Shown: piece by piece, positions 41,657 through 63,447 of the stretch
Position numbering within the stretch: the stretch's first letter is position 1
Layout: each line of letters starts with the position of its first letter
NCBI GenBank assembly: GCA_017885655.1
Contig: JAFNFQ010000004.1
Coordinates: 89,373 to 153,372, forward strand
Length of the DNA stretch: 64,000 nucleotides
Reading direction: 5' to 3'
Source: Methanobacteriota archaeon
GTDB taxonomy: Archaea > Thermoplasmatota > Thermoplasmata > RBG-16-68-12 > JAFNFQ01
Made by a program: the position numbers and the translations under genes
The notes under the pieces: model-generated
The model's input: the letters and a program-made list of their open reading frames with translations, nothing else
Told to the model about the DNA's origin: nothing
The model's database searches: none

Positions 41657-41719
41657 GGCGGCGGCGAGATGAAACGTGGGCGTAAATATTCTTCCGCGGA
41701 AAGCCTTCAACAGGGAATC
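41576..41719. repeat. Direct repeat copy 2 of the GNAT promoter/5' segment
   Basis: See copy 1. Copy 2 ends where the Fic gene (41718-42656) ends. Confidence 0.7.
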
Positions 41720-44427: not shown

Positions 44428-44496
44428 GTTCCATCCCCCGGGATCAGGCGGTCCCCGGCGGGGTCGGTGCTCCTCTCTCGGTCATCGTCCGGCAGC

Positions 44497-48119: not shown

Positions 48120-48199
48120 TCACTCCGACTTCGCTCTCAGGATGACTGTGGCGATCCCGTCCAGGCACAGCGGCGACAGCTGCCCCTCCGAGCCCTCGC
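48120..48199. repeat. Copy d of the repeated gene-3' segment (shortest Y-type copy, about 80 bp)
   Basis: GTCCAGGCACAGCGGCGACAGCTGCCCCTCCGAGCCCTCG is shared with copies c and e. Minus-strand reading ...GSEGQLSPLCLDGIATVILRAKSE*. Confidence 0.6.
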
Positions 48200-48345
48200 G
48201 GAGGCGTAATTCTCCTGCGGCACTCCGGGCGGAACCGCACACGGGATTTACTCTGACGGAATTCTCCTATCCTAGGCCGATTGCGTTATGAAAGTACACA
48301 GAATCATTATGGCCGCGAATGCGTTGCCATTCGCGTGGATGAGAC

Positions 48346-48861
48346 ATGACTGCAGAGCGCACGATGCTGTTCATGGACGGATCGAATCTTTTCCACTCCA
48401 CCAAGGACTTCGACCCTGGATTGAAAATCGATCTCGTGAAACTTCGAGATTTCTTGGCGAAAGACAGGCTCCTGATACGCGCATACTACTATGGCTCGAT
48501 ACCGATTGGGAATCCGGAGAGAATCGCGAAACAGACCGCCTTTCATCACTTGCTCGAGTACAGCGGTTTCAAGACGGTGATTTTGCCGCTGCGCAGGCGA
48601 GGGGCGGAGTACGTGGAGAAAGGTGTCGACGTCTCCCTTGTTACCGACATGTTGGCGCTTGGGTTCGATCGAGCTTACGAGTGCGGCATTCTCGTGGCTG
48701 GCGATGCCGACTATGTCAGGGCGATTCAAGAGGTAGAACGCAAGGGCATCAGGATTCACGTCGCATTCTACGATCTCCCCTTATGTGCGGGCGACCTGAG
48801 ACGGGCTGCACATTCGTTCGTCTCGCTGGATAAGCATCTTGAGGAATTCAGGAAGTCGTGA
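48346..48861 (+). CDS. NYN-domain (LabA-like) protein, paralog 1
   Basis: MLFMDGSNLF ... YYYGS ... EKGVDVSLVTDML ... LVAGDADYVRAIQEV, matching the NYN/LabA core. The likely true start is the ATG at 48364. Confidence 0.8.
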   Translation: MTAERTMLFMDGSNLFHSTKDFDPGLKIDLVKLRDFLAKDRLLIRAYYYGSIPIGNPERIAKQTAFHHLLEYSGFKTVILPLRRRGAEYVEKGVDVSLVTDMLALGFDRAYECGILVAGDADYVRAIQEVERKGIRIHVAFYDLPLCAGDLRRAAHSFVSLDKHLEEFRKS

Positions 48862-48879
48862 AATCAAAAATGCATTGAG

Positions 48880-48975
48880 GAAGCTTTTTTGCCAGACGAC
48901 CGAGCCAAATGATGTGCGCTTGTCGTTATGGTTTTTGGCGGTCGTCTGGAGAGTTATTTTCGCATTCTTAATTCA
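48880..48975. repeat. Conserved hairpin element (copy 1) just downstream of NYN paralog 1
   Basis: TTTTTT-GCCAGACGACCG-(loop with CTTGTCGT)-CGGTCGTCTGG-AGAGTTATTTTC. Resembles 60420-60515 in the arms, the loop motif and the T-rich flanks. Confidence 0.55.
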
Positions 48976-49087
48976 CGTGCTTGCTTAAAACTCTTTCGCT
49001 TGGAGTCAGCCTCTTGATAGCCTGATCTGGCAAGCGTCCGTGTGAGCGATTGATGGATATTTCCAAGAAGGTTCCACGCGCAAAAGC

Positions 49088-49492
49088 CTAGATGGACGAT
49101 TCGAAGTTTGCGCGGAGTATCGCGGTCGCAACACCGTCCAGGCACAGCGGCGACAGCCTCCCCTCCGAGCCCTCGTGGACGCACGTCGCCCTCAGGTCGC
49201 ATTCGGGGCAGAACCGCACGCGGATCTCGCTCTCATCCAGCCCCAGGAGGCCCGCCTGGTCGAACATGTCGTGGAGGAGCTTCAGGTACTTGCCCTCGGC
49301 TATGCGCGGCACGTCGTACTTCGCCGCCTTCAGTCCCCCGCGCGCGGTCCAGTACTCGTAGAGGCGCCGCGCGCCCTTGGAGCTGTTGCACAAGGGGCCG
49401 ACCCGGAAGGCATTCCTCCCGCCACTAGTCAATAAATGGCGATTGCATTCCGTGCAGCTTCGCCACGAATTCTTCAGTCTTCTTAAAGTCAC
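49088..49492 (-). CDS. Hypothetical small Cys-pair protein (134 aa if GTG at 49492); the full-length gene whose 3' end recurs in copies a-d
   Basis: SCTECNRH ... FCPECDLRATCVHEG Cys pairs. 3' region 49088-49284 is the repeat unit. The GTG start overlaps the upstream RNase-III-like gene by 68 nt, so the true start may be an internal TTG/GTG/ATG. Confidence 0.5.
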   Translation of the reverse strand: MTLRRLKNSWRSCTECNRHLLTSGGRNAFRVGPLCNSSKGARRLYEYWTARGGLKAAKYDVPRIAEGKYLKLLHDMFDQAGLLGLDESEIRVRFCPECDLRATCVHEGSEGRLSPLCLDGVATAILRANFESSI

Positions 49493-49937
49493 GATCAGTA
49501 TCTAAGTAAACGGCTCCTATGAGCGCCTCTAGCGTCTCGGCCGGAATTCTCGGTTGCACATCGAGGCTCTTATCTCTCTCCGACCCTCCCAGCCGAATGA
49601 GACCTCCGACTCCTTTTTCCAGTGCGAGTTTTGCTAACGTCGGTTTCTCTTCCATCTTTCTCCTTTCCACGGTAATTTTGTCCCCTGTCTCGAAGCCGGA
49701 GTGATATAGGATATCGGTTAGTGCCGCTTTGAGCAAAGCATCGCCCAAGGTCGCGAGCGCTGTCTGATCCTCACATTTCGGTTGCTGCAACGCCCGATCC
49801 TCGACAAACTTCTGACGGGTCAATGCACGGATGAGAATATCTGTGTTTCCGAATCGATGGCCGAGAATTCCTTCCTCTTCGTTCGCTTTGATGATCTTGT
49901 CCATTGGGTCTTCGAGTTTCAAGCAATCACCTCGCAC
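49425..49937 (-). CDS. RNase III-domain-like protein (170 aa, single catalytic-domain type)
   Basis: LATLGDALLKAALTDILY and ETLEALIGAVYLD resemble the RNase III signature (ERLEFLGDA ... EALIGAIYLD). Confidence 0.55.
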   Translation of the reverse strand: MRGDCLKLEDPMDKIIKANEEEGILGHRFGNTDILIRALTRQKFVEDRALQQPKCEDQTALATLGDALLKAALTDILYHSGFETGDKITVERRKMEEKPTLAKLALEKGVGGLIRLGGSERDKSLDVQPRIPAETLEALIGAVYLDTDRDFKKTEEFVAKLHGMQSPFID

Positions 49938-50150
49938 ATATGTCTGTTCATGCTAATCCTGTCGTGTTCCATTGCTATTCCCCTCGCCGACATGCAAATG
50001 CATGGGGTCCTATTTCAAAGATGGCTTGCGCATGATGGTGACATCCCGCCCACCGCTAGATCGTCCTGCTGAGTTAAGTGTCAATTTGAGAATGTCAATC
50101 GCGACCTTTATCAAACTCTATATACGCGACACTCACATTCGGTTAATCGA

Positions 50151-50633
50151 TTGCGCATGGCAGGAGTTACGTGCCTGACCTTGTCGGGGGACAACTACTG
50201 GGCGGTCGTCAACAGCGTCTGGTCTCTTCTGTATGAGGGGCTTTCAGTCCCTAGCCACCTCATTCTCATAACTAACGGCCGCCACAAAGATGTCGCGAAG
50301 AGGGCTTCCGATTCGTTGCAGACACTGCTTTCCTTCTATGGGATGACCAGCGTCCCCGAAATCATCGTCGTCCCCGAATATGACCTGCGCCAGGTACACG
50401 ACAAGCTGTTTGAAATCATGCAGAAGGCCAAGTCGGAGGGAGAAGTCGCTCTCAATATCACTCCGGCTAGAAAGTCGCTTGCCACAGTCGCCATGGTCGC
50501 CGCATGGGAAACTAAGGTGAATAGAATCCATTACGTTTACCTCAGAAGTCTCAAGGACGCCGATTGTCCCTATCCCCTCATAGCAAGGGATCTCCATGAA
50601 TTGCTCGACTTGAAGGAGCTCCGCCCGAAATGA
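50151..50633 (+). CDS. CARF-like Rossmann-fold sensor domain protein (degenerate ligand-site motif)
   Basis: VTCLTLSGD ... HLILITNG ... VALNITPARKSLATVAMVAAWE ... IHYVYL parallels the Csa3-like protein in this window (VHIATVGE ... LHINITGGTNIMASAALIAG ... VYYI), but with NITPA in place of NITGG. TATA CTATATAC at 50118-50125; likely ATG at 50157. Confidence 0.45.
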   Translation: MRMAGVTCLTLSGDNYWAVVNSVWSLLYEGLSVPSHLILITNGRHKDVAKRASDSLQTLLSFYGMTSVPEIIVVPEYDLRQVHDKLFEIMQKAKSEGEVALNITPARKSLATVAMVAAWETKVNRIHYVYLRSLKDADCPYPLIARDLHELLDLKELRPK

Positions 50634-51718
50634 GCACATGGTGCGCGCCCAGCAGATTCCTGATGGCGCTGGTCAACAGGATTTTTGGATATGGACGCGG
50701 GGTAATCACAATCAGATATCCACTCTATGGCACGGAGCTCTTCTCATTCGATTCATCATTCAAAGTCAAGAGCGCCTCATCCAAGCACAAGTTTTACGAA
50801 GCGCGAAAGGCTGCAACCTCATGGAGCAAGGAGCTGAGTCACGAAGCGCCCGAGTGGAACCAAGTGATGGACTCGTTCGTATCCTCTGGGACATTGAAGC
50901 CTCAGAACCTCGCCGATTTCGCTGTATGGGCCAGGAAGACACTGGAGGATAGGAGACGTCCGGAATTGGCAGCTCGCCCATTCTTCCTGGCAATCGATAC
51001 GAATGTAGCTTACAATCGCCTGTTCACGCGGCATTTTCCAATCGATGGCCCAAGCGGCGTCGTTAGAGCTCCAGATTTCAGATTCCTGTTATGCGATGTT
51101 GTCCGTCGAGAAGTCGACGAACAGATTAAACGAAAATATCGCGGGGAACTGAACCAAATATTCACCCATCCTGAACAGGAATCGATTCTCAAGGAAATCG
51201 GAGGACGCAATGTCCTCGTGGCGCGAAGGGCCAAGCTCGCTCAGAATGAAATCGACTACCTTGACAAAACGCTCAACGCCTTGACTGTTCCTTGCACGGA
51301 GTTCCCCTCAGACAAGGAAGATCGAGATATTCTCATCGCAAAGACCTACGGAGCATTCAGCCGGGACAGAAACGTGGACATAGCGCTGCTGACGATGGAC
51401 CAGAACATGGTGGACCACGCGAAGAATGCTCAGATTATGTCCTTCTCGTTAAGGGTCCCTGGAGCTTCGGAACTGGAGAAGGTCGAACTGCACTACTCCC
51501 TGTGGCATCTGCTCCACGATCTGGCCGTTGCGCTAGGCGTGATTGACATAGAGCCCTTCGGGACGCGGGTGTACGGCGAGTGGGCCGGAAAAACCACGTC
51601 TGACTACGGCGCAGAGAGAGTGAAGATAGTTCTCGACGACAAAGCTCCAATAGCGAATGAAGTGGTCAGGGACTTCCGGATTTGCGCGAAAGTCTTGGGA
51701 GTGTCAATTAGCGGCTGA
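50630..51718 (+). CDS. PIN-domain nuclease with N- and C-terminal extensions
   Basis: ATGA overlap with the CARF-like gene. PIN core PFFLAIDTNVAYN ... DVVRREVDEQ ... LLTMDQNMVDHA. Confidence 0.65.
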   Translation: MSTWCAPSRFLMALVNRIFGYGRGVITIRYPLYGTELFSFDSSFKVKSASSKHKFYEARKAATSWSKELSHEAPEWNQVMDSFVSSGTLKPQNLADFAVWARKTLEDRRRPELAARPFFLAIDTNVAYNRLFTRHFPIDGPSGVVRAPDFRFLLCDVVRREVDEQIKRKYRGELNQIFTHPEQESILKEIGGRNVLVARRAKLAQNEIDYLDKTLNALTVPCTEFPSDKEDRDILIAKTYGAFSRDRNVDIALLTMDQNMVDHAKNAQIMSFSLRVPGASELEKVELHYSLWHLLHDLAVALGVIDIEPFGTRVYGEWAGKTTSDYGAERVKIVLDDKAPIANEVVRDFRICAKVLGVSISG

Positions 51719-53230
51719 CGGTTTGCCATCGTGGGATTCAGCGACTATGTCGGCGCCTAGATCCTTCGCTCTCTGTGTGACACGTTTAGCATCATCAGGT
51801 GACTTGGCCAGGATGTATTTCTTCCCTTTGTGTTGGAATAGATCTACATCTTCTTCTGACTTCAACCTCTGGGCACCCTTTGGAAGAGTCGGAGGGAGCA
51901 CTGTCCAACGGTACACGATCTCGTGGGGCAATGATTGCACCTCCCCCTCATCGGGAATAGGGAATTCCTTGGGCTCGGTCTCCGCCATCGAGTCCAACGA
52001 TTTCGCTTGAATTGTGCCAAGGTCTTTCTCGATTGTCCCTCCTACGATTGCCGGCGACAGTCCCCTGCCGTCCCAGAGGAGGCATTCGCCGGTAACCTGG
52101 CCGCGGGGCAGGTTCTCCGTCAGCCTGAAGTGGAATGTCTTGGGCCATGACTCCATCAGGGTTCGAAGACTCTCGCACTGGGCGGGGGTGAGTTGGACAC
52201 CGGTCTCGAACCCGGTATCTAATCCGCGTGATTCTACATTGGCCGTCATCACGATGCCACGCATCTTGCCGCTCATCTTGCCTAACATGGCTTTCGCGTG
52301 CAGGTACCTGTGAGCATATACATCCGCGCCTCCGCGCATCAGATTCACGGCAGCCTCCATGTTCTTGACGCGGGGTCGCATGAAAATGTGCGTTCTCAGC
52401 CCACCCTTGACCCTCTTCAGCAGGTTTTGTGTGACTTCGTGTTTCATATCGAGATTATAGATTGACATCCAGAAATCATCCTGTGCACTCTCCACGAAGT
52501 CCAACAGAGATTGCCTGAGGGTTTGCATGTTCTGCGTCGTCACGGGCAGGTCAGACGGCAACACGGACTTTATCTCCATCCTACCGGACTTGCTGACCGG
52601 TTCTAGGCGTCCAGCTCGGAACAGCTCGTGTTCGCTCTCCTGCCAGAATCCGATTCTGAACTGTTCGAAAAGCGCTTTCGCAAGATCACCTTTCAAGGGG
52701 ATAACCACCTCAACGTTCCGTGTCAAGGCTTCTGTGGCAAGATTTGCGGTGGAAAGGAAGGCTGCCGTCTTGCCAGGACTCCGCGGATCGACGATCACAA
52801 ATTTCGAATGGAAGTGCCCTGCTGTGCGGACCAATACTCTGCCCGCCAATGCGTCCAATGTCGCCTTATGCTCCTCAACCTGCCTCTTAGCGAATTCCGA
52901 TTCCTGAGAAAGGTCTTTGAGCAGATGTTGCTCCGACATCGTCAGCACGTAACAGCGCACACCTCTTTTCGACGCCTCCAGGAGCGCGTTGCCGATATTC
53001 TGATCGTAGAACAGGAAAGAGCAAAGGCATACCGTTTCCATAGAAGAGCGTATGGCTTCGACGATCATCGAACGGGCGAACCCAGTTTCCTCGGTGGGCC
53101 ATATGGTGGCGTCGCGCCTCGGCGGCACTGCGGGCGATCCCATCTGAGGCGCCAAAGGAATCCATGCAATCCCTAGAGGATTTTCCCTGAAAGGCTTGAT
53201 CATCTTCTTCTCTAGCGCCCAAGTGCTCAT
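51704..53230 (-). CDS. Phospholipase-D-family nuclease (two HKD motifs), MkoB-like
   Basis: HFHSKFVIVD and HAKAMLGK HxK motifs. ATG at 53230 gives an ATGA overlap with the upstream gene; the track ORF from 53278 would overlap it by 52 nt. Confidence 0.8.
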   Translation of the reverse strand: MSTWALEKKMIKPFRENPLGIAWIPLAPQMGSPAVPPRRDATIWPTEETGFARSMIVEAIRSSMETVCLCSFLFYDQNIGNALLEASKRGVRCYVLTMSEQHLLKDLSQESEFAKRQVEEHKATLDALAGRVLVRTAGHFHSKFVIVDPRSPGKTAAFLSTANLATEALTRNVEVVIPLKGDLAKALFEQFRIGFWQESEHELFRAGRLEPVSKSGRMEIKSVLPSDLPVTTQNMQTLRQSLLDFVESAQDDFWMSIYNLDMKHEVTQNLLKRVKGGLRTHIFMRPRVKNMEAAVNLMRGGADVYAHRYLHAKAMLGKMSGKMRGIVMTANVESRGLDTGFETGVQLTPAQCESLRTLMESWPKTFHFRLTENLPRGQVTGECLLWDGRGLSPAIVGGTIEKDLGTIQAKSLDSMAETEPKEFPIPDEGEVQSLPHEIVYRWTVLPPTLPKGAQRLKSEEDVDLFQHKGKKYILAKSPDDAKRVTQRAKDLGADIVAESHDGKPSAAN

Positions 53231-54357
53231 CGAACCGCCTCCTGCTTCCCCAGGTCGGTTGGTGCCCGCAAGTACCAATATGCCGCTGGCAATAAATCAC
53301 CACGAAGGATTGCGCCATGCCGAATCTGATCGGCCATCTTATCATGTTCAGGCAATGTGATATCGAAATCTGGGAATCTGTCGGTGACACCGCGGACTAG
53401 TTTAGGATAGCTGTTTTCATCAAGGTATTCGGTGATTTCATGCTCGAGAACCCACTCCCCCCATTCTTGTGCGTCTTTGACCGTTCGCGGGGCAATTGGC
53501 ACGTCACGGATTTCTGTTTCATCAAACGTGCCGTATTCACTCACGGTCGGCCTATCTAACTTCAGTTGCCTCGACATCGACGTCTTCTCTGCATCCGACA
53601 CCTCATTGAAGCCGCATCGCAAGACCCCTCTTCGAGCATCCCATGCCTGGCGAGTGTCGCCCAACAACTCAAGGAAAATGCTTTCGTGGGAAACCTTGGG
53701 CGACTCCATATCCCACTTTGCGAAACCTTCTGCCATGAGCTCAGATTCTCTATCAGGGTGGATGATCCATTTCAGCGAAAGCCTCTCATTCTGTTCCACC
53801 TGCGAACGTACGCATCGTTCAGCGACTGACATGATGCGGATTCGCTCCCCTAATCGTGGAAGCATGATTGACTGGTCTTTCAATTCGACAAGCCATGGCG
53901 GCACCTGCTCGACCTCCTCAGATTGTTTGCCTTTCGATTCGAGCCTCCTCGCCGCCCTGCGCGCGTTCACGATGTCCTCCACCATGGGCTCGTGCGTGCC
54001 TTCCAAATCCAGGATTCGCTGAGGAACCAACGGGTCGGTCGTGCAAAGAATTCTATAACGTCCATGCTCTGGCAATGGCACAGTTTTTCGCTCAAGCGAT
54101 TCTCTCCCTAAAGGCGTGAGACTTCCATAATCGTCAAGTAGCCCGAGATCTCGGCAGCGCGAAATTACCGTATGGCCAACGGCTATCGGTCGATCAATGA
54201 GGAGGGAATTGCAGATGTCCTCTGCTCTGATTTGTCCTCCGAGTTCTTCCGCTCGCATCAGAACGGAGATGACATCCTTGCGCCTCTCCTCCCTCCCGAC
54301 TTCCATAACAACTTCATACGCGGTCATTGACACATTTCGACTAAGGATGATCTTCAT
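53227..54357 (-). CDS. Hypothetical protein (376 aa) embedded between the helicase and PLD genes
   Basis: 4-nt overlaps on both sides indicate co-translation within the operon. No recognisable motif; the N-terminus is possibly wHTH-like. Confidence 0.6.
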   Translation of the reverse strand: MKIILSRNVSMTAYEVVMEVGREERRKDVISVLMRAEELGGQIRAEDICNSLLIDRPIAVGHTVISRCRDLGLLDDYGSLTPLGRESLERKTVPLPEHGRYRILCTTDPLVPQRILDLEGTHEPMVEDIVNARRAARRLESKGKQSEEVEQVPPWLVELKDQSIMLPRLGERIRIMSVAERCVRSQVEQNERLSLKWIIHPDRESELMAEGFAKWDMESPKVSHESIFLELLGDTRQAWDARRGVLRCGFNEVSDAEKTSMSRQLKLDRPTVSEYGTFDETEIRDVPIAPRTVKDAQEWGEWVLEHEITEYLDENSYPKLVRGVTDRFPDFDITLPEHDKMADQIRHGAILRGDLLPAAYWYLRAPTDLGKQEAVR

Positions 54358-57002
54358 CTTGTGTTCGACCTCCCTTCTTTTGAACTGTATGAGAAGGCTA
54401 TTGGTATCTGGGTCCCGAGCCGCCGCAACAAATCAGATTTCCACTGGCGGGCGAAGCCCCTGCAATTCCCCACTAGGACCAATTGGAATCGCCCTCTCGT
54501 TATCGCGACGTTCAATCTATGAGGACTGTCGAGGAATCCAATGCTTTTTCTTCCGAGTGGATCCCGAACAAAGGATAAAAGCACGAAATCTGCCTCGTGC
54601 CCTTGGAATCGGTCAACAGATCCAAGAGAGACGCGGACCCTGCCATCGCCGGTCTTGAAATGCTGCCTGTTCCAAGACTTGAACAAGCTACGCAATCGTC
54701 GTCTCAGCTCGCTTTCTTGGGCGAGATAGAATGTCAGCACGGCAACATCCCACGGCAATATAGTGCCGTTCTTCTTCTTCGGATTGCTAGTCGCCCACGA
54801 AAGGAAGGTCTGGAGCTCATCCATTATAATGTCGGCCTCGGCAAAATTGCGGTTGGCGTTCGGATCTTCATTCGCTAGAACATGAATCCAAACGGATCGG
54901 GCGCCGTATCTTCCGATATTCAGAGACCGCTGTGAAGCAATGTTTGGTGGGTCTCTGAGGCTTTGGCCTTCGTAGATATTCTCACGCGGGAACCGGGAGA
55001 TATCAGGATGCATTCGATGCTGATACGTCAAGACCGCGTGTCGCTTGCTCAGAACTTCCGTGGGCAGCCCGTGGGTGATTGCCGTTGGCTCATACTTCAT
55101 CTGCTCCCTTTCGAATCCGACTTGAAGCATTTCCAGGATAGAAGGCAGTGCTACGCGCTTGATTGAATTGACTTCATATGAAATACGATTCATTTCTTTT
55201 TCATCGAGCCACTTTGGCAGGAGCGCGTCGACATCTGCGGCGTACCGTTTCGCCTCTTCAGGCCGACGGCGGAGTTCAAACTGACGAATGAGGCGCCATC
55301 CGATTTCCGAAGCCCACGTTTTCTCCTCGCGTTCCATCTGTTCCTCATTGTCGGCCTCCTCGGGATGACGCACTCGCCAGTACGCCATTCTTCGCTCGAG
55401 GCGTGACGTGATAACCGTCTCGGAGAGAACTTGAACATTCAGAGGCAATAAACGACCGATGACGGTCAAATCCTTCGTGTCAGCGACCATCAGGTCGGCC
55501 CAAAGTGGCCCCAGGTCTCCACTATCGATCGTCTGCGGCGACAATTGTACCGTAGGTATGCCCAGCGCTTCCGCTTGTTTTACTGCCCATTCCCTGACCT
55601 TCGGGTCGGGGTCGCAAAGGAGAAAGCTGCGTTTCTCGCCCTTCTTGCGACGCGCCCGCACGAAGGCCTTGAACACTGGTAGTATCGCGCGGCTTTCCCT
55701 CTCGTCCAGGATGCCCGCAAGATTGGCCTCGACCTCGACATTGTTCACGAAGGGTGATAGCTGATTGACATCTCCAACGAGGACCCATTTCTTCGCATAG
55801 AGTGCTGGAACCAAGAACTCCTGGAATGGGGTCTTGCTCGCCTCATCAACAATCAGTGTGTCAAACTCCGGGAACGCCGGCCGCACGAGACCCACCGCTA
55901 TGTCAGGATGTTTGAGAATGCCTATGGTGGTCCCGCATACGAGATTCGCAGAATCCAGGATCAATCGCTGAAGAACCTTTTCGCCATCTTCTTCCAAAGC
56001 TTTCAGCAGGTAGTCCTGTGCGGGGGTCCTCCGCGCAATGCCTTTGAGTTTCTTCTTGAGTTCGTTCCTCTCAGTCTCGAGCCGGTTCTTGAGCAGAAGA
56101 TGAGAGACTTGCTCGGAAACGTCGAAATCCCTCGAGGCAATTCGCACCGCGACGACGGACCTTTCCATCCACCCCAGATCTACAAGCTTCTCCAAGACAT
56201 TGTCAACCGCCACATGCGTGGATGCGCAAAGAAGGACTCGATGTCCCAGCTCGATTTCTTGAAGAATCAACTCGCAGATGGTGACGGTTTTTCCGCTGCC
56301 GGGGGGCCCTTCAAGAATCGCGAAATCCGGGGTGCCAAGGGCTTTCTCCACAAAGTCACGTTGTTCATCGACTCCCGCAAAGTCGTCATCGACCAGTATT
56401 CTCCAGTTAATGGGGGAGACAGCCGCAACTGGTTCCCATCGAACATTGTTGTAGCCTTCGGCCAATGAAATCAAAGGCCTGTGAGCAGGGTGAGGACTCT
56501 GCCGAATATTCTCCAGGGCCATTAGCTCGCGATAGAGGTTCCATGTATTGGGGTGAATGTAGACTTTCTCTGCAGCTGGCAATCGGGACACACAGATCGC
56601 GTCAATTTCGGGCTCCCTGTCAAGCACCTCAATATCGCCGCGTCCTGCCTTTGCTTTATCGGAAATGAAATCCGCATCGAAGAACTCATCGAACACTTCT
56701 TCGGGAGTCTCAGCGTCGATTTCTCTCAGACGAATCCAAAATCCCATCGCACTCGTTTTTCGTTGTGCCGGTTGGTGAATGTTTTGTTCGGAGGGCATCG
56801 ATCCATTGGCGGTTCGATTTCGGATAATCTCTGGGTCAATAGGTCCCTCCCAGGCGAGCATCAATGCCTGCGCTTCAATCCTGTACTTTGCGCTGCTAAG
56901 ATACTTGTAGAACGGTCGGTAGTTGTTGTAGGTTCTTTCCAAGAGAACCTGAATGTCTGTGTTAGGAACTCTTGGCATATTAGCAAAGTGCAGGTTCAGC
57001 AT
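54354..57002 (-). CDS. Superfamily-1 Upf1/DNA2-like helicase (COG1112-type, MkoA-like) with about 230-aa N-terminal domain
   Basis: Walker A GPPGSGKTV, Walker B LIVDEASKT, motif VI VAITRGRFQLVLVG. Confidence 0.85.
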   Translation of the reverse strand: MLNLHFANMPRVPNTDIQVLLERTYNNYRPFYKYLSSAKYRIEAQALMLAWEGPIDPEIIRNRTANGSMPSEQNIHQPAQRKTSAMGFWIRLREIDAETPEEVFDEFFDADFISDKAKAGRGDIEVLDREPEIDAICVSRLPAAEKVYIHPNTWNLYRELMALENIRQSPHPAHRPLISLAEGYNNVRWEPVAAVSPINWRILVDDDFAGVDEQRDFVEKALGTPDFAILEGPPGSGKTVTICELILQEIELGHRVLLCASTHVAVDNVLEKLVDLGWMERSVVAVRIASRDFDVSEQVSHLLLKNRLETERNELKKKLKGIARRTPAQDYLLKALEEDGEKVLQRLILDSANLVCGTTIGILKHPDIAVGLVRPAFPEFDTLIVDEASKTPFQEFLVPALYAKKWVLVGDVNQLSPFVNNVEVEANLAGILDERESRAILPVFKAFVRARRKKGEKRSFLLCDPDPKVREWAVKQAEALGIPTVQLSPQTIDSGDLGPLWADLMVADTKDLTVIGRLLPLNVQVLSETVITSRLERRMAYWRVRHPEEADNEEQMEREEKTWASEIGWRLIRQFELRRRPEEAKRYAADVDALLPKWLDEKEMNRISYEVNSIKRVALPSILEMLQVGFEREQMKYEPTAITHGLPTEVLSKRHAVLTYQHRMHPDISRFPRENIYEGQSLRDPPNIASQRSLNIGRYGARSVWIHVLANEDPNANRNFAEADIIMDELQTFLSWATSNPKKKNGTILPWDVAVLTFYLAQESELRRRLRSLFKSWNRQHFKTGDGRVRVSLGSVDRFQGHEADFVLLSFVRDPLGRKSIGFLDSPHRLNVAITRGRFQLVLVGNCRGFARQWKSDLLRRLGTQIPIAFSYSSKEGRSNTR

Positions 57003-57901
57003 CCAATTTCCCTTCCCCTTTCCCTCAACACTCCGAAGATCTCCTTGTCATCAGCGATGACCTTCCCCCCGGGACGCCATTGGTAATGGCCGCCTCGAAC
57101 AAGAAACTTTCGCCTATCCCATCCCGCTCTCTGAATAGCATCTTGCACTCCGACCTCGAGAATCGACGGTCCGAACCCATAACTGCCACCCGTATTCTGG
57201 AAGAATCGACCGAGTGGGTCCATCATGAGGTATGAGTCTGTCATGGCCCGATTATCCTCTTTGACTGGATTGAGGCATTCATGGCGAGCGACGAAGGCTT
57301 CGAACTGCCCATTCATAGTGGCCAAGTCTGCGAAGCTGTCATCGTTCTCTCCTTTTATTGGGAGCATTTGAAAGACCTTCCACCGCCGAGGTTTCAGTTC
57401 GGCAACGAAGGATCGCATGTCTTCTCCCCAATTCATTGAGGTGACAACAGTGTTGACTTTGAATCGTATGCCGAATTCATGAATCCGCTTTGCCACTTCG
57501 CGAACAAGTGCGACATGATTTCCATCACCCCGCCCGAGAGCTTTTTCCACTTGCTCTGATGCGCTGTCAACGCTCAGAGCGATCCAGTCGACTAGGTCTG
57601 CAATCGTGCTGAGATAGGTCTTATTCAGCCGCGTCCCGTTCGATATGATCATCGTTGTCAGGCCAGCTTCTTTTGAAGCCTGAAGTACCTCTCGGAGGTG
57701 GGAACACAATGTCGGCTCCCCTCCCGCCAAGGTCAACTTTTCCGTCCCCGCTTTGCGGAGAATCTCCGGAATCTTCACCGCCTGATTCATCGAAAGCGGG
57801 GTACAGATTCCCTTGAAATGGGCGAAGCAGAATCTGCAGCGATAGTTGCACCATGGCCATATATGCCAATTCACCGAAACCGGTTCCACGCCCCCATTCA
57901 T
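56996..57901 (-). CDS. Prokaryotic viperin (pVip) radical-SAM enzyme
   Basis: Residue-level correspondence with animal viperin: PVSVNWHIWPWCNYRCRFCF vs [20 protein letters not shown]; AGGEP vs SGGEPF; ISNGTRL vs VSNGSLI; FKVNTVV vs FKINSVI; RWKVFQMLPIKGEN vs RWKVFQCLLIEGEN; MTDSYLMMD vs MKDSYLILD; ILEVGVQDAIQRAGWDRRKFLVRGGHYQW vs [29 protein letters not shown]. Confidence 0.9.
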   Translation of the reverse strand: MNGGVEPVSVNWHIWPWCNYRCRFCFAHFKGICTPLSMNQAVKIPEILRKAGTEKLTLAGGEPTLCSHLREVLQASKEAGLTTMIISNGTRLNKTYLSTIADLVDWIALSVDSASEQVEKALGRGDGNHVALVREVAKRIHEFGIRFKVNTVVTSMNWGEDMRSFVAELKPRRWKVFQMLPIKGENDDSFADLATMNGQFEAFVARHECLNPVKEDNRAMTDSYLMMDPLGRFFQNTGGSYGFGPSILEVGVQDAIQRAGWDRRKFLVRGGHYQWRPGGKVIADDKEIFGVLRERGREIGC

Positions 57902-57946
57902 CTAGATTGTCAGGTATTGCAGACACCTATAGCGGTTCTCTTTTAT

Positions 57947-57967
57947 AGTAAAATGCTGCATTTTACT
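57947..57967. promoter_or_regulatory. Perfect 10-bp inverted repeat (AGTAAAATGC-T-GCATTTTACT) in the pVip/csa3 divergent promoter; candidate Csa3 operator
   Basis: Lies between the TTTTATAG TATA-like box (57941-57948) and the csa3-like ATG (57973), i.e. over the expected leaderless transcription start. Confidence 0.4.
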
Positions 57968-57972
57968 GACGG

Positions 57973-58617
57973 ATGTGCGCAGTCCATATAGCCACGGTCG
58001 GCGAAACGCCCGAGCCAATCATAGAAGGCGTCAGACACCACAGCGTCGATTTGCAGGTGCTCCTGCATAGTCGCGAGACAAAGAGTGTTGCCGTCGAAAT
58101 TCGCAGGAGGATTAAGAGCCTTATTGGCAGAGACATCTGTGAGCTGAAGGAGATCGATCCGTTCGACATGCGCGACATCATGACTGCCATCGTCTCATAT
58201 CGAAAAAGGATGCCCGCGGAGGTGCTCCACATCAACATAACGGGCGGAACCAACATCATGGCATCTGCGGCCCTGATAGCGGGATTCGTGGTCGGGGCAC
58301 GCGTTTACTATATCCGGAAGGATCCAAACCCGAAGATACCGCTCGCTGATCGTATCATCGAGCTTCCGGTTCCCCGCGTTTCTCTTGAGAGCCTCGACGA
58401 GAATCATCGCAGGATTCTGAAATTGATACATAATCGAGGAACGGAGTTCGCTCCGGCCAACAGCGTGATTGCGACCGAATTGGGGATGTCGCGGCAGCTC
58501 GTGAGCTACCACCTCAGGAGGCTCGAGAGGGCGGGCTTATTGCACCTGACACTTGAAGGTCGAAACAAGATCGCGAGTCTGACGCCCGAAGGAGACCTCT
58601 ACGCTGAGATTGTTTGA
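57973..58617 (+). CDS. csa3: Csa3-like transcriptional regulator (CARF domain + winged HTH)
   Basis: CARF motifs VHIATVGETPEP and LHINITGGTNIMASAALIAGFVVGARVYYI; C-terminal wHTH RILKLIHNRG ... IATELGMSRQLVSYHLRRLERAGLL. Confidence 0.8.
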   Translation: MCAVHIATVGETPEPIIEGVRHHSVDLQVLLHSRETKSVAVEIRRRIKSLIGRDICELKEIDPFDMRDIMTAIVSYRKRMPAEVLHINITGGTNIMASAALIAGFVVGARVYYIRKDPNPKIPLADRIIELPVPRVSLESLDENHRRILKLIHNRGTEFAPANSVIATELGMSRQLVSYHLRRLERAGLLHLTLEGRNKIASLTPEGDLYAEIV

Positions 58618-59255
58618 TCCAGAATGCGCCCCATAACCGAAGCCGAATCACAAGGACGCGATGGCAAGATTCTTGTCCACCCATTAACATGGCGCACCAA
58701 CGAGGCCGTCATATGACCAAGAATCCGGCGAAAATGAGGGAGGACTTCAAGCCCGATAGGATACGATTTCTGATGGTCGGAGAATCACCGCCCAGGAAAG
58801 GGTTCTTTTATGATCCTGAAAGCTCATTGAAGTCGTTGTCTCGCGGTACCGCTGAAGTCTTTGAGGAAGTATATGGTGAGGACTATGGCAAAGGAGAAGA
58901 CCAGAAGCTCCTGTTCCTCAATAGCTTCCAATCTAAAGGGTTCTATCTTCACGATTTCTACGCTGTGAGAGGCAAGAAAGTAAGAAGAAGACGTTGGGAC
59001 GATATATACGAAGGAATCGACGAGCTCAGGTCATTGCTGGAAGTCAGTAAGGCCGACATTGGACGTGTCGTGACGGTGTGGCCCGAGATCTCGGACATCG
59101 TGGATGAAGCTTTGTGGAAGGAGGAGATTAAGGCACTGCACAGGATCGTCCCATTCCCCTCCAATGTGAGCATGAAGGTCTACAAGTGGAGGATCTCGGA
59201 GATCGTGAAGGAGTTCGAAGGTCGTCCGCGTTCGCATTCTCGCAACGATCGATGA
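58614..59255 (+). CDS. Hypothetical protein, ATGA-coupled to csa3 (alternative ATG at 58713); possible uracil-DNA-glycosylase-superfamily fold
   Basis: FLMVGESPP and IVPFPSNVS loosely resemble UDG motif A (GE.PG) and motif B (HPSP.N). Weak assignment. Confidence 0.4.
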   Translation: MIQNAPHNRSRITRTRWQDSCPPINMAHQRGRHMTKNPAKMREDFKPDRIRFLMVGESPPRKGFFYDPESSLKSLSRGTAEVFEEVYGEDYGKGEDQKLLFLNSFQSKGFYLHDFYAVRGKKVRRRRWDDIYEGIDELRSLLEVSKADIGRVVTVWPEISDIVDEALWKEEIKALHRIVPFPSNVSMKVYKWRISEIVKEFEGRPRSHSRNDR

Positions 59256-59423
59256 CGGAGTGACTGAGGCAAAATCCGCGATTTCTGCATGATCATCTCC
59301 TTCCCCCTGATGCGGATACGCCCGGATAGGACTTGACTTCATCGCAAGAAATACCGTCGAACTGTCTCCAACCACGTTGATGTTCCTCCATTTCCACACA
59401 TCAATGTAGGAGGTGTGATTCGA

Positions 59424-59585
59424 TTGAAGCCTATCAACGTAGACGACAAGAACGTGTGGTTCGAGCGCGGGGTGAGGTGCCTGGAGAGACACGAGTACGG
59501 TCAGGCGGTGGACCGCTTCAAGAGGGCGCGCGTGCCGCTCCCATGGGAGGTGCTGAGGAGAAGGAGCGGGAAGATGAAGTACTAA
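59424..59585 (+). CDS. Possible small ORF (53 aa, TTG start) upstream of NYN paralog 2
   Basis: GGAGGTG 9 nt upstream of the TTG. Product KPINVDDKNVWFERGVRCLERHEYGQAVDRFKRARVPLPWEVLRRRSGKMKY. Speculative. Confidence 0.2.
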   Translation: MKPINVDDKNVWFERGVRCLERHEYGQAVDRFKRARVPLPWEVLRRRSGKMKY

Positions 59586-59635
59586 GCTGGAGGCTCTGAT
59601 GCGAATGGTGAATATCATCAAGGGATAATCGGCCC

Positions 59636-60199
59636 ATGCAACATTCGATGCCTGAGAGATTGATGATTTTCATCGATGGTTCAAATCTCTTTCACACCGG
59701 TCGACTGTACGGGAAGCATTACCGAATCGAGGACCTATGCAACGAACTGTCCGCGGACAGACAACTCGTCCGGACCTACTACTATGGTTCCATTCCCACT
59801 GGCGGAGACGACGACAAGGTGGAGAAGCAGAAAGGATTCCATATGAGGCTGGAATATGGGGGAATCAATGTCAGCATCATTCCGCTGAAGACACGGGAGG
59901 TCAATTTTAAATGTCCAAAGTGTGGGGCAAAATCGGCTTTCAGCCGCAATGTCGAGAAGGGGGTGGACGTCGCGCTCGTCACTGACATGCTTGCTTTCGG
60001 TTTCCGCGATGGCTACGATGTGGCCTTGCTGGTCGCGGGCGACCTGGATTACATCAGAGCGATTGAGGAAGTGAAGAGGATACCAAAAAGGGTCGAGATA
60101 GCATTCTTCGAGAGCATCCAGGCGATCAGCGGCGCACTGAAGAGGAAAGCGGATCGCTTCATTCCTCTGGAACCGATAATCAACAAGATCGGCACCTAG
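59636..60199 (+). CDS. NYN-domain protein, paralog 2, with an inserted CPKCG zinc-ribbon
   Basis: MIFIDGSNLF ... YYYGS ... KCPKCG ... EKGVDVALVTDML ... LVAGDLDYIRAIEEV. Confidence 0.8.
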   Translation: MQHSMPERLMIFIDGSNLFHTGRLYGKHYRIEDLCNELSADRQLVRTYYYGSIPTGGDDDKVEKQKGFHMRLEYGGINVSIIPLKTREVNFKCPKCGAKSAFSRNVEKGVDVALVTDMLAFGFRDGYDVALLVAGDLDYIRAIEEVKRIPKRVEIAFFESIQAISGALKRKADRFIPLEPIINKIGT

Positions 60200-60419
60200 T
60201 GTTTAGACGTAGTTATTTCACCAGGTCGCCGAGGAGATACCGAAAGCGTCTCCCCGCCAGGGCATGTTGGTTCCGCCGACCTGTTAAGTTGTTTCACCAC
60301 CCTTATGACTCCCGCGTATCTTAAGCTTTTTCCTGGGGCTATCTCGAAGGGGCAGTACATGATTCTCGAATAGGCATCGTTGGCGGCGATGACACGGTCC
60401 GTGATCTGTTGACTTGGTA

Positions 60420-60515
60420 AAGGTTTTTTACCAGACGACCGACAAGCCATCCCCGCGAACACTTGTCGTCAAGGCATTAGCCGTCGTCTGGAGAGCTATT
60501 TTCAGACACCTCATT
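60420..60515. repeat. Conserved hairpin element (copy 2) downstream of NYN paralog 2
   Basis: TTTTTT-ACCAGACGACCG-(loop with CTTGTCGT)-CCGTCGTCTGG-AGAGCTATTTTC. See 48880-48975. Confidence 0.55.
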
Positions 60516-60677
60516 CGTTTCGGACTTTGAAGCCTTTATGCTTCAATTCATCAAGGTGCGCCGCACACGATGTCGCGAACCGAATTGAGTACACGGTCGG
60601 AGGAATCCCTGATGTCTTTCTCCGTGATGTTCAAGCGAGATCGCATCCGCATTTCTTTCCGCGCGAACGGGTTGGAC

Positions 60678-61187
60678 TTAGGGTACCCAGATGCATTCTT
60701 CGACTGTGACGAATTCGAAGGTCGCCGATTCCGGATTGCCGTCCTTGCGTATCCGCGAGAGGAGCGTTTCGAAGTCCTCATCGGAGTCGATTACCTTCCG
60801 ATTCTTCACTGCGATGTAGCGGTCGCCGAACTTCTTGCGCAGGGTCAACATGGACCTATCGATCCATGCCGAGTTCCGCTGCTCTCTTCGAATCGAGCGG
60901 AGTATCTCTGCCTTGTTCACGTTCATTACAGGCTCTTCATGGCCTGCTATGGAGATAAAGCCTTCTCGTCCGATTATGGTCGGTCCGAGTTGCAACGCAC
61001 ATCTACGGCGAATCGGGGTGAGTATTGAGAAGGGGCGTTGGCTTGAGTCTCTTTTCATGAGTGAGAGGGCGAATTTTCGACCCCCTACATGGTTCAAGAT
61101 AGTCTTGCCTATCCTATATTCTCTCATTGATTCAAGAATCAATAGAGCAGGATTGGGGTATGGACCATGTGCCTCGCACCTACTCAA
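60678..61187 (-). CDS. Hypothetical protein; true gene may be only the C-terminal roughly 80 aa
   Basis: The C-terminal part (MNVNKAEILRSI ... DRYIAVKNRKVIDSDEDFETLLSRI ... FEFV) looks like a small self-contained domain. The long N-terminal extension is low-complexity. Confidence 0.4.
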   Translation of the reverse strand: MSRCEAHGPYPNPALLILESMREYRIGKTILNHVGGRKFALSLMKRDSSQRPFSILTPIRRRCALQLGPTIIGREGFISIAGHEEPVMNVNKAEILRSIRREQRNSAWIDRSMLTLRKKFGDRYIAVKNRKVIDSDEDFETLLSRIRKDGNPESATFEFVTVEECIWVP

Positions 61188-61316
61188 TCCCGCCAGAGAG
61201 TGCGAATATCCTTTCGATCATTCCGCCCGAGACTCCCATGGGTTCTGGACAAGTCCAGTGATGTCTCAGACGGATGGGCGATAGCATTTTAGCGAGGCAT
61301 GCCATTCATTATTTAA

Positions 61317-61664
61317 ATGGAAGCGCAGGGGGGCGCGACGCTCCGTCACGCAAAGACGCATCTGAGCCGCGAGGGACTCGCATGCGTTATTGTCGATTAC
61401 TTGGTTCTAAGAAAGGAGAGTACCAAGCCAGGATGCACCGCGTACGACATCGCTAAAAATGCACCTAGGCTGAGGACCACACAGCGTCAGCAGCGAATCG
61501 AGGAGATTCTAAGGGATCTCGAGACACAGGGAATCGTCCACTGCGAGCGCTACGAGAAAGCAAGCTACTTCTCGATTACTGATGATGGGATGAAGTGGTA
61601 CAAGGATATCGTCAAACGTTTCTATGATGTGCTCGGGCCGATTTATCCTGGATTTCAGGACTGA
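61317..61664 (+). CDS. PadR-like winged-helix transcriptional regulator
   Basis: VIVDYLVLRKESTKPGCTAYDIAKNA ... RQQRIEEILRDLETQGIVHCE ... YFSITDDG follows the PadR pattern (hGYel ... G.lYp.L.rLe..G). Confidence 0.5.
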   Translation: MEAQGGATLRHAKTHLSREGLACVIVDYLVLRKESTKPGCTAYDIAKNAPRLRTTQRQQRIEEILRDLETQGIVHCERYEKASYFSITDDGMKWYKDIVKRFYDVLGPIYPGFQD

Positions 61665-61754
61665 CTCGCAACGGATTTCGCTTGAATATTGCCCCGGATA
61701 TTATTCGGTCGGGTTTAGATCAGTCAGCTGTGTTCAGATTCCTTAGAAGGGGCT

Positions 61755-62501
61755 TCATCTGACCCAGATTGAAGTGAATTTGCCGTCACTATGCGTGAGG
61801 AGTGCATTGAAGACATTCTTTGTGGGCAATCCCTCCTCACTCCGAGTCCATTCGACCGCGTCGGCCTCGAAACCGGCTTTGGACACAGCCAATATCACGA
61901 AAGGTCCCCTGCCACGTCTTCTTGCAACGTCCATGACATCCGCTTTGAACTCGACAAGTTCCGCCATGGTCGTCGGACTTTGCCCTTCGAACCTTCTTAT
62001 GGCTGCCAATCGTGCTCCGAATTCAGCATAGATATTGAAACGGTGCGAGCCAGTCTTTCCAAGGACTTCAGCGTCGAAAGTGACTTTAGCTTTTGAGAAC
62101 TCGGGATGAAGCTCCGTGAGCTTGGCCATTATCTGCTTATCCAAATCCTCGCTCGTAGTCGGCAACATCTCGAATTTGACTTTGAACCAAAGAGGGTAGA
62201 AGCATTCAAAGAAGTGCTCTAAAGGTTTATCGAACTTCATGGACGGGGCAATCACAAAGAGTCCGAAAAAGCCCAGGATTATTCCGGCCAACCCGGAAAT
62301 AAGAACAGCCAAATCCGTAAACGGCCCCCACACTTCCGGTTCAAGGACCATTGCCAGAATCCATAGAATCAATGTGATTATCATGACGAGGCTGGATACT
62401 TTCGCCCAGAGTACCAAAGTTCTGAGCTTCTGTCGCTGGCTAAACAGGGTTTCTGACGCTTCCAAGAGAGTAAGTACCGGAGGAGTGCCTGCTTTATTCA
62501 C
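61755..62501 (-). CDS. Membrane protein (two TM helices) with a C-terminal cytoplasmic domain of unknown function (possibly nuclease-like)
   Basis: TM segments LVMIITLILWILAMV and LAVLISGLAGIILGFFGLFVIA; C-terminal D..E.K-like residues (DAEVLGK ... ELVEFKAD). Confidence 0.5.
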   Translation of the reverse strand: MNKAGTPPVLTLLEASETLFSQRQKLRTLVLWAKVSSLVMIITLILWILAMVLEPEVWGPFTDLAVLISGLAGIILGFFGLFVIAPSMKFDKPLEHFFECFYPLWFKVKFEMLPTTSEDLDKQIMAKLTELHPEFSKAKVTFDAEVLGKTGSHRFNIYAEFGARLAAIRRFEGQSPTTMAELVEFKADVMDVARRRGRGPFVILAVSKAGFEADAVEWTRSEEGLPTKNVFNALLTHSDGKFTSIWVR

Positions 62502-62661
62502 GATGCTGAATATGAAATGGCGACATATAGCCGGTACTGGAATTTCGTTCTAGTTCCACGACGCGGAAATCATCATACGTGAACTGATGTTCTCCTGAAT
62601 CGTATTTTCGTTCGTTGCCAACCCTAGTATCTCTTCATGCCTCTATGTCTCGGTGTAAAAA

Positions 62662-63294
62662 ATGCGAGACACGGAAGCAGATTCGGAAATAGGTGTGAGC
62701 GCGGATGTGGGAACGTCAGCCAAGAGAGTGGCCGTCTTCGTTGACGTGCCAAACCTCTGGGTCGTTGCGAAAGACAATGGTTTCGATTTTGACACGAAAC
62801 CAGTGATCGACGCAGCAAAGACCTACGGTCGGGTCGTTCTCGCAAAGGCATATGCCGCCATCCAGTGGGGGCGGCCAGTGAATTCTGGGGTGATAGACCT
62901 CGAGCATGTCGGCTTCGAGGCCGTGCATAGATGCGTGTCGCCGAAAGATGGCAATGGAAAGAAAGACATCGACTCCCTACTCTTGACGGATATGATCGTG
63001 GCCGCGTACGAAAACGTGGCCGACACGTTCCTGCTTGCAAGTGGAGACTCAGACTACGTTCCAGCCATTCGGACGATCAGACGGCTTGGCAAGAAGGTCG
63101 TGGTCATGTCATACCCCGCCCAGATGTCCCCGCGGCTGCTTGCAATCGCAGACGAGGCCATATCGATGATCCCCCCCTGCGAAGTGAAGGATCCCGGGAA
63201 CGAAAGTTGTGCAATGCCCCCCGCCATCCGGGATTCGACGTGGAGTCGGGACTGTGGGGTCCCTGTTGATGGCTCAGCAGGAGTCAAAGGATAG
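62662..63294 (+). CDS. NYN-domain protein, paralog 3
   Basis: VAVFVDVPNLW ... KDIDSLLLTDMIVAAY ... LLASGDSDYVPAIRTIRRLGKKVVV. Confidence 0.75.
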   Translation: MRDTEADSEIGVSADVGTSAKRVAVFVDVPNLWVVAKDNGFDFDTKPVIDAAKTYGRVVLAKAYAAIQWGRPVNSGVIDLEHVGFEAVHRCVSPKDGNGKKDIDSLLLTDMIVAAYENVADTFLLASGDSDYVPAIRTIRRLGKKVVVMSYPAQMSPRLLAIADEAISMIPPCEVKDPGNESCAMPPAIRDSTWSRDCGVPVDGSAGVKG

Positions 63295-63306
63295 GGGGGA
63301 AATATC

Positions 63307-63447
63307 GTGCGAACGAGATATTTAATCGCTGGTGGTGCCGGATTCATAGGAAGCCACTTGGTCCGTTGCCTTCTCGATCGAGATTCTCAGGCGAGAGTCG
63401 TTATTCTCGATGGAATGAATAGACACCAGAAAATTGATATAGGGTAA
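63307..63447 (+). pseudogene. Remnant of the 5' end of an NAD-dependent epimerase/dehydratase gene (46 codons, then premature stop)
   Basis: GTG-RTRYLIAGGAGFIGSHLVRCLLDRDSQARVVILDG matches the N-terminal Rossmann motif (TGGAGFIGSHL) of UDP-glucose 4-epimerase / dTDP-glucose dehydratase-type enzymes. The reading frame ends at TAA 63445-63447. Confidence 0.5.

Follow-up and report, generated by a model that had tools for sequence, protein, structure and literature searches.

NYN domains are metal-dependent RNases, and prokaryotic NYN proteins of the Pfam family PF01936 are abundant, with a function that is almost unknown. Among RNases generally, some control their own mRNA through a stem-loop, as with the 3′ untranslated region (UTR) of eukaryotic Regnase-1/Zc3h12a, itself a PIN-like/NYN-type RNase with its regulatory element in that UTR, and with the leaders of bacterial RNase III and RNase E. 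The type III toxin-antitoxin (TA) systems ToxIN, CptIN and TenpIN likewise join an endoribonuclease to a structured non-coding RNA, often in defence contexts; there, tandem repeats upstream of the toxin serve as the antitoxin RNA, while the toxins have folds other than NYN. For NYN proteins themselves, no function is assigned in the main classification paper, and assays cover a single bacterial member. What is known of cyanobacterial LabA comes from genetics alone and makes it a regulator of circadian output (PMC5499597). The NYN protein associated with a type III-B CRISPR system of Bacteroides fragilis is a Mn2+-dependent, sequence-nonspecific single-stranded RNA (ssRNA) endonuclease with an Asp triad as in the structure 2QIP; it is encoded next to cas6 within a type III locus and has been proposed to trim CRISPR RNA (Chi and White, bioRxiv 10.1101/2024.04.08.588522). 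The closest named defence candidate, HEC-09, is by definition embedded in Hma (helicase-methylase-ATPase) systems and has an N-terminal region resembling a helix-turn-helix (bioRxiv 10.1101/2024.01.29.577857).

Here we analyse three NYN genes (NYN1, NYN2 and NYN3) in a 64,000-nucleotide stretch of an archaeal genome of the Thermoplasmatota (assembly GCA_017885655.1, contig JAFNFQ010000004.1, positions 89,373 to 153,372), hereafter the window. A first-pass annotation made from the sequence alone had suggested that they are cargo nucleases of a defence island or parts of unrecognised two-gene systems. Our comparative analysis indicates that the conserved partner of NYN1 and NYN2 is not a protein but a structured RNA element directly downstream, which we call the NYN-3′ motif.

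Our repeat search revealed an 87-nt block downstream of both NYN1 and NYN2 that is ~74% identical between the two, though synonymous sites are saturated, and both copies of the block fold stably (z −3.5 to −4.6). The ~150 nt directly after NYN2 are also conserved with L084 (labels such as L001 or L180 denote related or adjoining stretches compared with the window), the locus of a 67%-identical homolog; the mismatches lack codon periodicity, and two compensatory changes fall within a 7-bp stem. Between strains the stretch after NYN2 is 96% identical, compared with ~93% at synonymous sites. We built a covariance model (R2) from NYN2 copy A and two relatives and then rebuilt it as R3, with copy A in the seed of both. 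Because R3 matches both other hairpins of the window (the NYN1 copy with 20.9 bits with filters off and NYN2 copy B with 28.6 bits), we treat them as variants of one motif. The NYN1 copy, which has a folding z of −4.1 and an 11-bp stem visible independently of any model, is kept with its gene in L180 and L182. Copy A consists of helix 1 (CAGGTCG/CGACCTG) and two inner hairpins, and the loops of copy B vary in L183 with the stems invariant.

Across eight copies the pairing of helix 1 is complete (100% of cells) and 5 of its 7 pairs show compensatory changes; overall pairing is 92% as against 31-51% when the partners are slid. Read without the model, helix 1 occurs in seven different versions, all fully Watson-Crick, and MAFFT followed by RNAalifold recovers it independently. 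The G-U pairs fall on the plus strand, which fits an RNA in the gene's orientation. The common layout is an A/U-rich leader, a GC-rich closing helix of 7-11 bp, one or two inner hairpins and an 'AG[UC]U.UU' tail. Unpaired nucleotides, namely a UYCCCGC junction and the AG[UC]U of the tail, are conserved across lineages whose coding DNA is saturated. No Rfam 15 family matched at E≤1 over any motif copy in the window, L004, L009, L020, L032 or L176, and the literature searched contained no description of an RNA motif linked to NYN/DUF88 genes. A conserved and covarying RNA structure, undescribed as far as our searches show, accompanies genes that are themselves new members of a known family. Two coding interpretations of the region were rejected: a small hydrophobic peptide ORF (open reading frame; 48839-48988 and its NYN2 counterpart) has an in-frame stop in L183 and no coding-type substitutions, and a minus-strand 88-aa ORF (60196-60462) has mismatches distributed 18/17/13 by codon position and stops in L084.

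The linkage of the motif to NYN genes extends well beyond the window. In searches covering ~1.5 Mb of loci, R2 found same-strand copies of the motif immediately following the NYN stop codon in L176/L178 and L020, and R3 added L009 (Archaeoglobaceae) and L032, again after the stop. With filters off, the three best matches in 88 kb of other archaeal loci (L004, L005 and L006) and the best match in predicted viral contigs (L184) all lay at an NYN stop codon. Altogether the motif follows NYN genes in at least nine archaeal lineages and starts between −3 and +23 nt from the stop codon. It was found at none of 67 further family loci, nearly all bacterial, and no credible match was seen at NYN3 or its relatives; NYN3 is an independent lineage without the NYN-3′ RNA. 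An exact-pattern hairpin scan of viral contigs gave no match. The L184 contig (IMG/VR, 4.6 kb, labelled viral) encodes an NYN protein with the motif overlapping its stop codon and a DnaT_2-like protein, and has no recognisable viral hallmark gene. A further copy (L014/L085, 3772-3840) follows a DUF2726 gene, within an AT-rich intergenic gap of 520 nt. The NYN gene of that locus is 4.2 kb away and has no detectable motif, and no NYN remnant lies near this copy.

Table 1. Coordinates of the NYN genes, their 3′ RNA motif and associated features in the 64-kb window
Feature	Position	Strand	Description
NYN1	48346..48861	+	171-aa single-domain NYN (LabA/COG1432-type) without CxxC insert; PF01936 92.6 bits
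NYN-3′ motif, NYN1 copy	48885..48961	+	23 nt after stop; closing helix CCAGACGACCG/CGGTCGTCTGG, tail AGAGTTATTTTC
NYN1 module	48134..49421		HNH-fragment repeat, NYN1, motif, truncated HNH gene
HNH endonuclease gene	49088..49421	-	Free-standing, 5′-truncated; intact 164-aa gene in L180 10725-11219
NYN2	59636..60199	+	187-aa NYN, beta-hairpin insert with CPKC at tip; PF01936 87.4 bits
NYN-3′ motif, NYN2 copy A	60214..60296	+	14 nt after stop; three-way junction, tail TTAAGTTGTTTCA
NYN-3′ motif, NYN2 copy B	60424..60503	+	224 nt after stop; closing helix CCAGACGAC/GTCGTCTGG; ~74% identical to NYN1 copy
NYN2 module	59341..60926		Upstream region, NYN2, two motif copies, 3′ part of convergent DUF5678 gene
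TM248	61755..62501	-	248-aa membrane protein, divergent from NYN3; only protein neighbour with outside support
NYN3	62662..63294	+	210-aa NYN, separate rare subfamily, disordered-looking C-terminal tail, no 3′ motif; PF01936 91.0 bits

As first annotated, all three ORFs encode NYN proteins on the plus strand, and each matches PF01936 over the full domain (E-values of 4e-26, 2e-24 and 1e-25 for NYN1, NYN2 and NYN3, against a gathering cutoff of 24.2 bits; profile positions 1-145, 1-145 and 1-143 of 145). Since NYN1 orthologs carry TTG at codon 1, its true start may be Met7. The paralogs are diverged, as had been claimed, and are not near-identical recent duplicates: NYN1 and NYN2 share 44% identity (E 8e-47), NYN1 and NYN3 28%, and NYN2 and NYN3 24%. 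The codon-aligned nucleotide identity of NYN1 and NYN2 is 53% (30% at third positions), and 22 foreign proteins score better against NYN1, and 36 against NYN2, than the other paralog does. NYN1 and NYN2 are therefore not each other's closest relatives, and the island contains two NYN subfamilies, NYN1/NYN2 and a separate NYN3 lineage. Relatives of NYN3 are rare (4 clusters at E≤1e-30 and 56 at E≤1e-10 among 1.84 billion representatives). Against the archaeal NYN family TIGR00288, NYN3 scores 26.2 bits (cutoff 178.45) and NYN1 and NYN2 gave no match.

The acidic active site is intact in all three proteins. A 30-sequence alignment that includes NYN1 has invariant D14, N17, D111, D136 and D138 (NYN2 numbering), and the NYN3 subfamily has invariant D28, D104, D129 and D131, the equivalents of the NYN2 catalytic residues. 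These correspond to the Asp of a D-x-x-N after strand 1, a central Asp in (E)KGVD/KDID and a G-D-x-D. The AlphaFold2 model of NYN2 (pLDDT 93.3, pTM 0.87) has 2QIP as its top Foldseek match (E 7e-11, target TM 0.81), and 2QIP was the sole match in a PDB sequence search for both the NYN2 family and NYN3. Each gene thus encodes a stand-alone, single-domain, PIN-like NYN protein of the LabA/COG1432 type with predicted metal-dependent endoribonuclease activity, and the biochemistry of MARF1 is a further basis for expecting such activity. Strain orthologs evolve under purifying selection, with ratios of non-synonymous to synonymous change (pN/pS) of 0.10 for NYN2 and 0.18-0.20 for NYN1. The CPKCG insert of NYN2 noted in the first-pass annotation is real (FKCPKCGAKSAFSR, residues 91-104), but it is not a four-ligand ribbon; rather, its single CxxC pair caps a long beta-hairpin (strands 85-92 and 99-106 of the model). 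With only two Cys it cannot bind zinc alone, although the hairpins may form an inter-subunit zinc site. The insert occurs in 39 of the 120 top-scoring homologs, and NYN1-like members lack it.

The suggestion that these genes are cargo was supported by comparison with related strains, in which their modules are 94-96% conserved while the flanks differ. The NYN1 module is 96.2% identical to L180 over 1288 nt and 96.6% identical to L182 over 1164 nt, with different flanking genes, and the NYN2 module is 94.2% identical to L183 over 1588 nt, with a gene for an SDH-protease to its left in L183 and Csa3-like, viperin and Mokosh-like genes in the window. The encoded proteins are 96.5% (NYN1) and 98.4% (NYN2) identical to their strain orthologs, whose neighbours include AbiE, OST-HTH, HNH, EcoRII-like restriction-modification (R-M), HEPN_AbiV and SDH-protease genes. 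Both modules thus behave as self-contained cargo, a pattern that supports movement as units between strain contexts. Shorter fragments of the HNH gene of the NYN1 module mark cassette borders at 44296-44429, 46590-46688 and 48157-48244 and have no secondary structure (folding z ~0). The nucleotidyltransferase, AcyP-like, SoFic and NYN1 cassettes occur in different orders in related strains (e.g. L182 5289-10048), and the left part of the island is an array of one-gene cassettes split by these fragments. The strain comparison thus depicts an archaeal defence island rebuilt from one-gene cassettes between remnants of HNH endonuclease genes.

We propose, with a probability of about 0.6, that the unit is a stand-alone NYN RNase gene that lacks an obligate protein partner, is accompanied for NYN1 and NYN2 by a cis NYN-3′ RNA, and is inherited as a one-gene module in a hypervariable island. 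The functional unit of NYN1 and NYN2 would be the RNase gene plus its motif, the motif most likely being part of the nuclease transcript, as its 3′ end, and controlling the nuclease in cis. It could do so by defining and protecting the mRNA 3′ end, or the nuclease could bind or cleave the motif, giving negative feedback on an otherwise non-specific RNase; inhibition of the nuclease in the manner of an RNA antitoxin is a further possible mode. A possible antiviral defence role of these genes is suggested by genomic context only. From the motif one would expect these nucleases to have an RNA ligand, substrate or regulatory site, and a covarying RNA linked to the stop codon in one archaeal clade offers a testable handle on NYN function.

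Several observations weigh against this proposal. Alignments fitted to the covariance models are biased towards the modelled structure, and little constrains the inner helices. The matches in L004, L005, L006 and L184 are weak (E 0.02-0.14) and convincing by position only, and the orphan copy in L014/L085 does not stand beside an NYN gene. T-runs just before the NYN1 copy and NYN2 copy B could end archaeal transcription ahead of them, and the motif may be an ordinary 3′ end or terminator structure. Further, HEC-09 protected against none of the phages tested (bioRxiv 10.1101/2024.01.29.577857) and so is no validated defence system, and immunity in E. coli did not require the B. fragilis NYN (bioRxiv 10.1101/2024.04.08.588522). 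In Dehalococcoidia and Aquificota the NYN gene lies in a core-genome context among GatCA, class II ribonucleotide reductase, Ham1, radical-SAM enzyme and baeRF genes, and because bacterial members lie in such core-gene synteny a housekeeping role in RNA metabolism is possible.

The alternative to which we give most weight, a serious rival though still judged unlikely, follows from these last points and had been named in the first-pass annotation as what would refute its view: the NYN proteins would be housekeeping LabA-type proteins of RNA metabolism that lie in or anchor a variable region, and the motif would be their terminator or mRNA-stability structure. Besides the core-gene members and the missing defence phenotypes, the persistence of NYN1 and NYN2 orthologs under purifying selection while their neighbours turn over would agree with it, as would the U-rich tail of the motif, which is as expected for archaeal 3′ ends. 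Housekeeping genes would, however, sit poorly with three diverged copies within 15 kb of a low-GC island, with an NYN-plus-motif module on a contig predicted to be viral or another mobile element (L184) and with conserved unpaired nucleotides that exceed the needs of a generic terminator. Nor do the closest archaeal relatives resemble core genes in their setting, as they lie in variable regions of no fixed arrangement near type I R-M, MmeI-like R-M, MNT/HepT, ParE, Fic, AbiE, HEPN_AbiV and DDE transposase genes. In six Aquificota loci (L011, L013, L015, L016, L018 and L022) a release-factor-like baeRF_family12 gene immediately precedes the NYN gene on the same strand, an adjacency that may point to a part for the family in translation or ribosome rescue there.

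A bolder form of our own proposal, which we regard as speculative and rather doubtful, is that the NYN-3′ motif and a LabA-like NYN protein form a two-component unit, with the RNA as antitoxin or inhibitor or as the target of self-cleavage feedback; this would be a new RNase-RNA defence or addiction module spreading as a ~1-kb cassette through defence islands. Less probable still is an arrangement resembling a type III TA system, with NYN as the putative toxin and the adjacent RNA, in two copies for NYN2, as a cis-encoded inhibiting antitoxin of an abortive-infection or addiction unit. The tight RNase-RNA linkage across lineages, the duplicated NYN2 motif, the orphan copy, the TA and Abi genes around the modules and the capacity of NYN enzymes to be non-specific ssRNases are all consistent with such a unit. 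The antitoxins of the ToxN/AbiQ, CptN and TenpN toxins are nevertheless upstream tandem repeats, whereas the RNA here is mostly a single copy downstream; bacterial orthologs, too, persist in core genomes without the RNA.

It is very improbable that the downstream element is instead a DNA-level site (a recombination or attC-like site or a homing-endonuclease target) that mobilises the NYN cassette. Its place at the 3′ end of a one-gene cassette in an array rich in HNH gene fragments might suggest this, its inverted repeats could fold as single-stranded DNA, and an orphan copy exists. Strain-conserved blocks, however, end in HNH repeats or beyond the motif and never at it, the other cassettes of the array lack the motif, the G-U pairs are strand-specific, and distant lineages without a cassette array keep the same position relative to the stop codon. 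No integron-type core sites were found, and no integron integrase was present among the annotated ORFs. We also rejected the four-copy repeat as an attC-like or att site, as its copies are unstructured HNH gene fragments.

The least probable reading, two-gene protein systems (NYN3 as the nuclease of the MkoA-like helicase operon, NYN2 as an effector under the control of the Csa3-like CARF-wHTH protein and the 213-aa protein encoded before it, or NYN1 paired with the RNase III-domain protein or SoFic), draws on NYN3 lying 160 nt upstream of a 1117-aa MkoA-like helicase with no PLD partner, on the CARF proteins nearby and on a weak TM248/NYN3 pairing seen again in L096, but it is largely refuted by comparative context, since none of these neighbours, the helicase operon and the Csa3-like and 213-aa genes included, occurs beside relatives, strains with 96-98% identical NYN1 or NYN2 have different neighbours, a UDP-glucose dehydrogenase gene follows the closest NYN3 relative where an epimerase fragment separates NYN3 from the helicase here, the intergenic gaps are 160-425 nt, and neither a CRISPR array nor a cyclase was detected in the window.

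We searched by tblastn for 20-25 island proteins in 80 genome loci of the NYN1/NYN2 family and 81 metagenome loci with NYN3-like genes, the latter gathered with a five-sequence NYN3 alignment; none recurred beside relatives, with the exception of a single TM248 homolog (L096). When neighbours were clustered de novo, only lineage-level synteny emerged and nothing family-wide. The search for conserved neighbours of each paralog in other genomes, which the first-pass annotation had proposed, thus returned no conserved protein in about 165 loci, its two-gene systems found no support, and none of the NYN paralogs appears to have an obligate protein partner. Neighbouring defence genes should accordingly not be read as NYN partners. 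In L096 the TM248 homolog is divergent and upstream of the NYN3-like gene; an obligate TM248/NYN3 pair was rejected because L175 has a TM248 homolog with no adjacent NYN gene and L094 an NYN3-like gene with no TM248. We likewise rejected NYN3 plus the MkoA-like helicase as a Mokosh variant, as no helicase lies near any NYN3 relative. The fragment between the two is a 46-aa ORF (63307-63447, MRTRYLIAGGAGFIGSHL...) corresponding to the N-terminus of an NAD-dependent sugar epimerase/dehydratase. Relatives of NYN3 and TM248 adjoin UDP-glucose dehydrogenase (L094, L175), so the helicase operon may have broken into an older neighbourhood of sugar-nucleotide genes.

The small ORF that the first-pass annotation placed before NYN2 (53 aa; 56 aa from GTG, 59415-59585) does exist, but it is very probably not a gene: it has 9 non-synonymous and 1 synonymous differences between strains (pN/pS ~2.5), is not called as a gene on three independent contigs and has no counterpart in related loci. 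Small DUF5678 genes recur near NYN1 and NYN2 orthologs (60678-61187 on the minus strand of the window, L182 7942-8190, L183 7051-7257 and 10891-11265). The one in the window is convergent with NYN2, and a retropepsin-like aspartic protease accompanies one of those in L183.

The surroundings of the NYN genes agree with the accessory region and defence island first described. GC content falls from ~0.60 upstream to ~0.52 from roughly 47 kb on, and the island is crowded with defence genes, including those for SoFic (382 bits), a stand-alone RNase III domain, a split CARF/PIN pair, a PLD/DrmC-like protein, an MkoA-type helicase, a prokaryotic viperin (285 bits, cutoff 180) and a Csa3-like protein with CARF and winged helix-turn-helix (wHTH) domains. 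In the minus-strand block 51704-57901, viperin (56996-57901) overlaps and is directly upstream of the MkoA-type helicase (54354-57002), which is followed by a 376-aa wHTH-like protein and the PLD/DrmC-like nuclease; the block looks like viperin joined to a Mokosh type-I-like operon, with 54354-57002 and 51704-53278 as the Mokosh-like pair. At 49425-51718, a 170-aa RNase III catalytic-domain protein with no match to a double-stranded RNA-binding domain adjoins a CARF_m1 (160 aa) and PIN-like (362 aa) pair, each member corresponding to one half of the fused PADLOC CARF_PIN model. Past the window end, 160 nt after NYN3, a second operon with an MkoA-like superfamily 1 helicase (1117 aa; L001 13819-20564) also encodes a DUF2997 protein (69 aa) and proteins of 360 and 554 aa, but no PLD nuclease. 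A pair of Fic-domain genes is found within 6 kb (41718-42656 and 46752-47921, the second being the strong SoFic match), with two nucleotidyltransferase genes near them (42801-43493 and 44497-44973). An exosome ECR1_N gene adjoins an SHMT gene and identifies the host as an archaeon, and a GC spike of 0.66-0.685 at 35929-40151 (flanks 0.60) spans 960-aa and 434-aa ORFs with no Pfam match.

Of the described systems, the LabA-like NYN protein 2QIP (VPA0982 of Vibrio parahaemolyticus) shares the domain family, similar size, acidic residues and fold with the proteins studied here; the beta-hairpin/CxxC variant of the archaeal clade, its island context and the linked 3′ RNA motif are undescribed for LabA. 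The B. fragilis NYN is the best experimental proxy for the activity expected here. It differs in adjoining cas6, whereas the 64-kb window contains no CRISPR or other tandem-repeat array, no Cas10 or Cas6 among its annotated ORFs and CARF proteins that are stand-alone only, and the PADLOC CRISPR-NYN model was matched through its C-terminal half only (29-36 bits). HEC-09, a single-gene NYN inside defence loci, is the best PADLOC match of all three paralogs (model PDLC04163; 36.1, 57.7 and 36.7 bits for NYN1, NYN2 and NYN3, via the shared NYN domain and with no curated cutoff), but no Hma components were present among the annotated neighbours. Mokosh type I systems combine an MkoA helicase with the PLD nuclease MkoB, a domain other than NYN, and integron attC cassettes have structured borders and an integrase in place of the unstructured repeats seen here. 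From type III TA systems the locus departs in having no tandem repeats, an RNA that lies downstream in one or two copies and an NYN protein.

Finally, few cis-regulatory RNAs are known from methanogens and Archaeoglobi, and to these the motif adds a candidate class of structured RNA. Its multi-branch junction at the stop codon is unrelated to the elements of RNases that control their own mRNA; as in those systems, a nuclease gene is joined to an RNA structure in cis, through which we propose that feedback may act.

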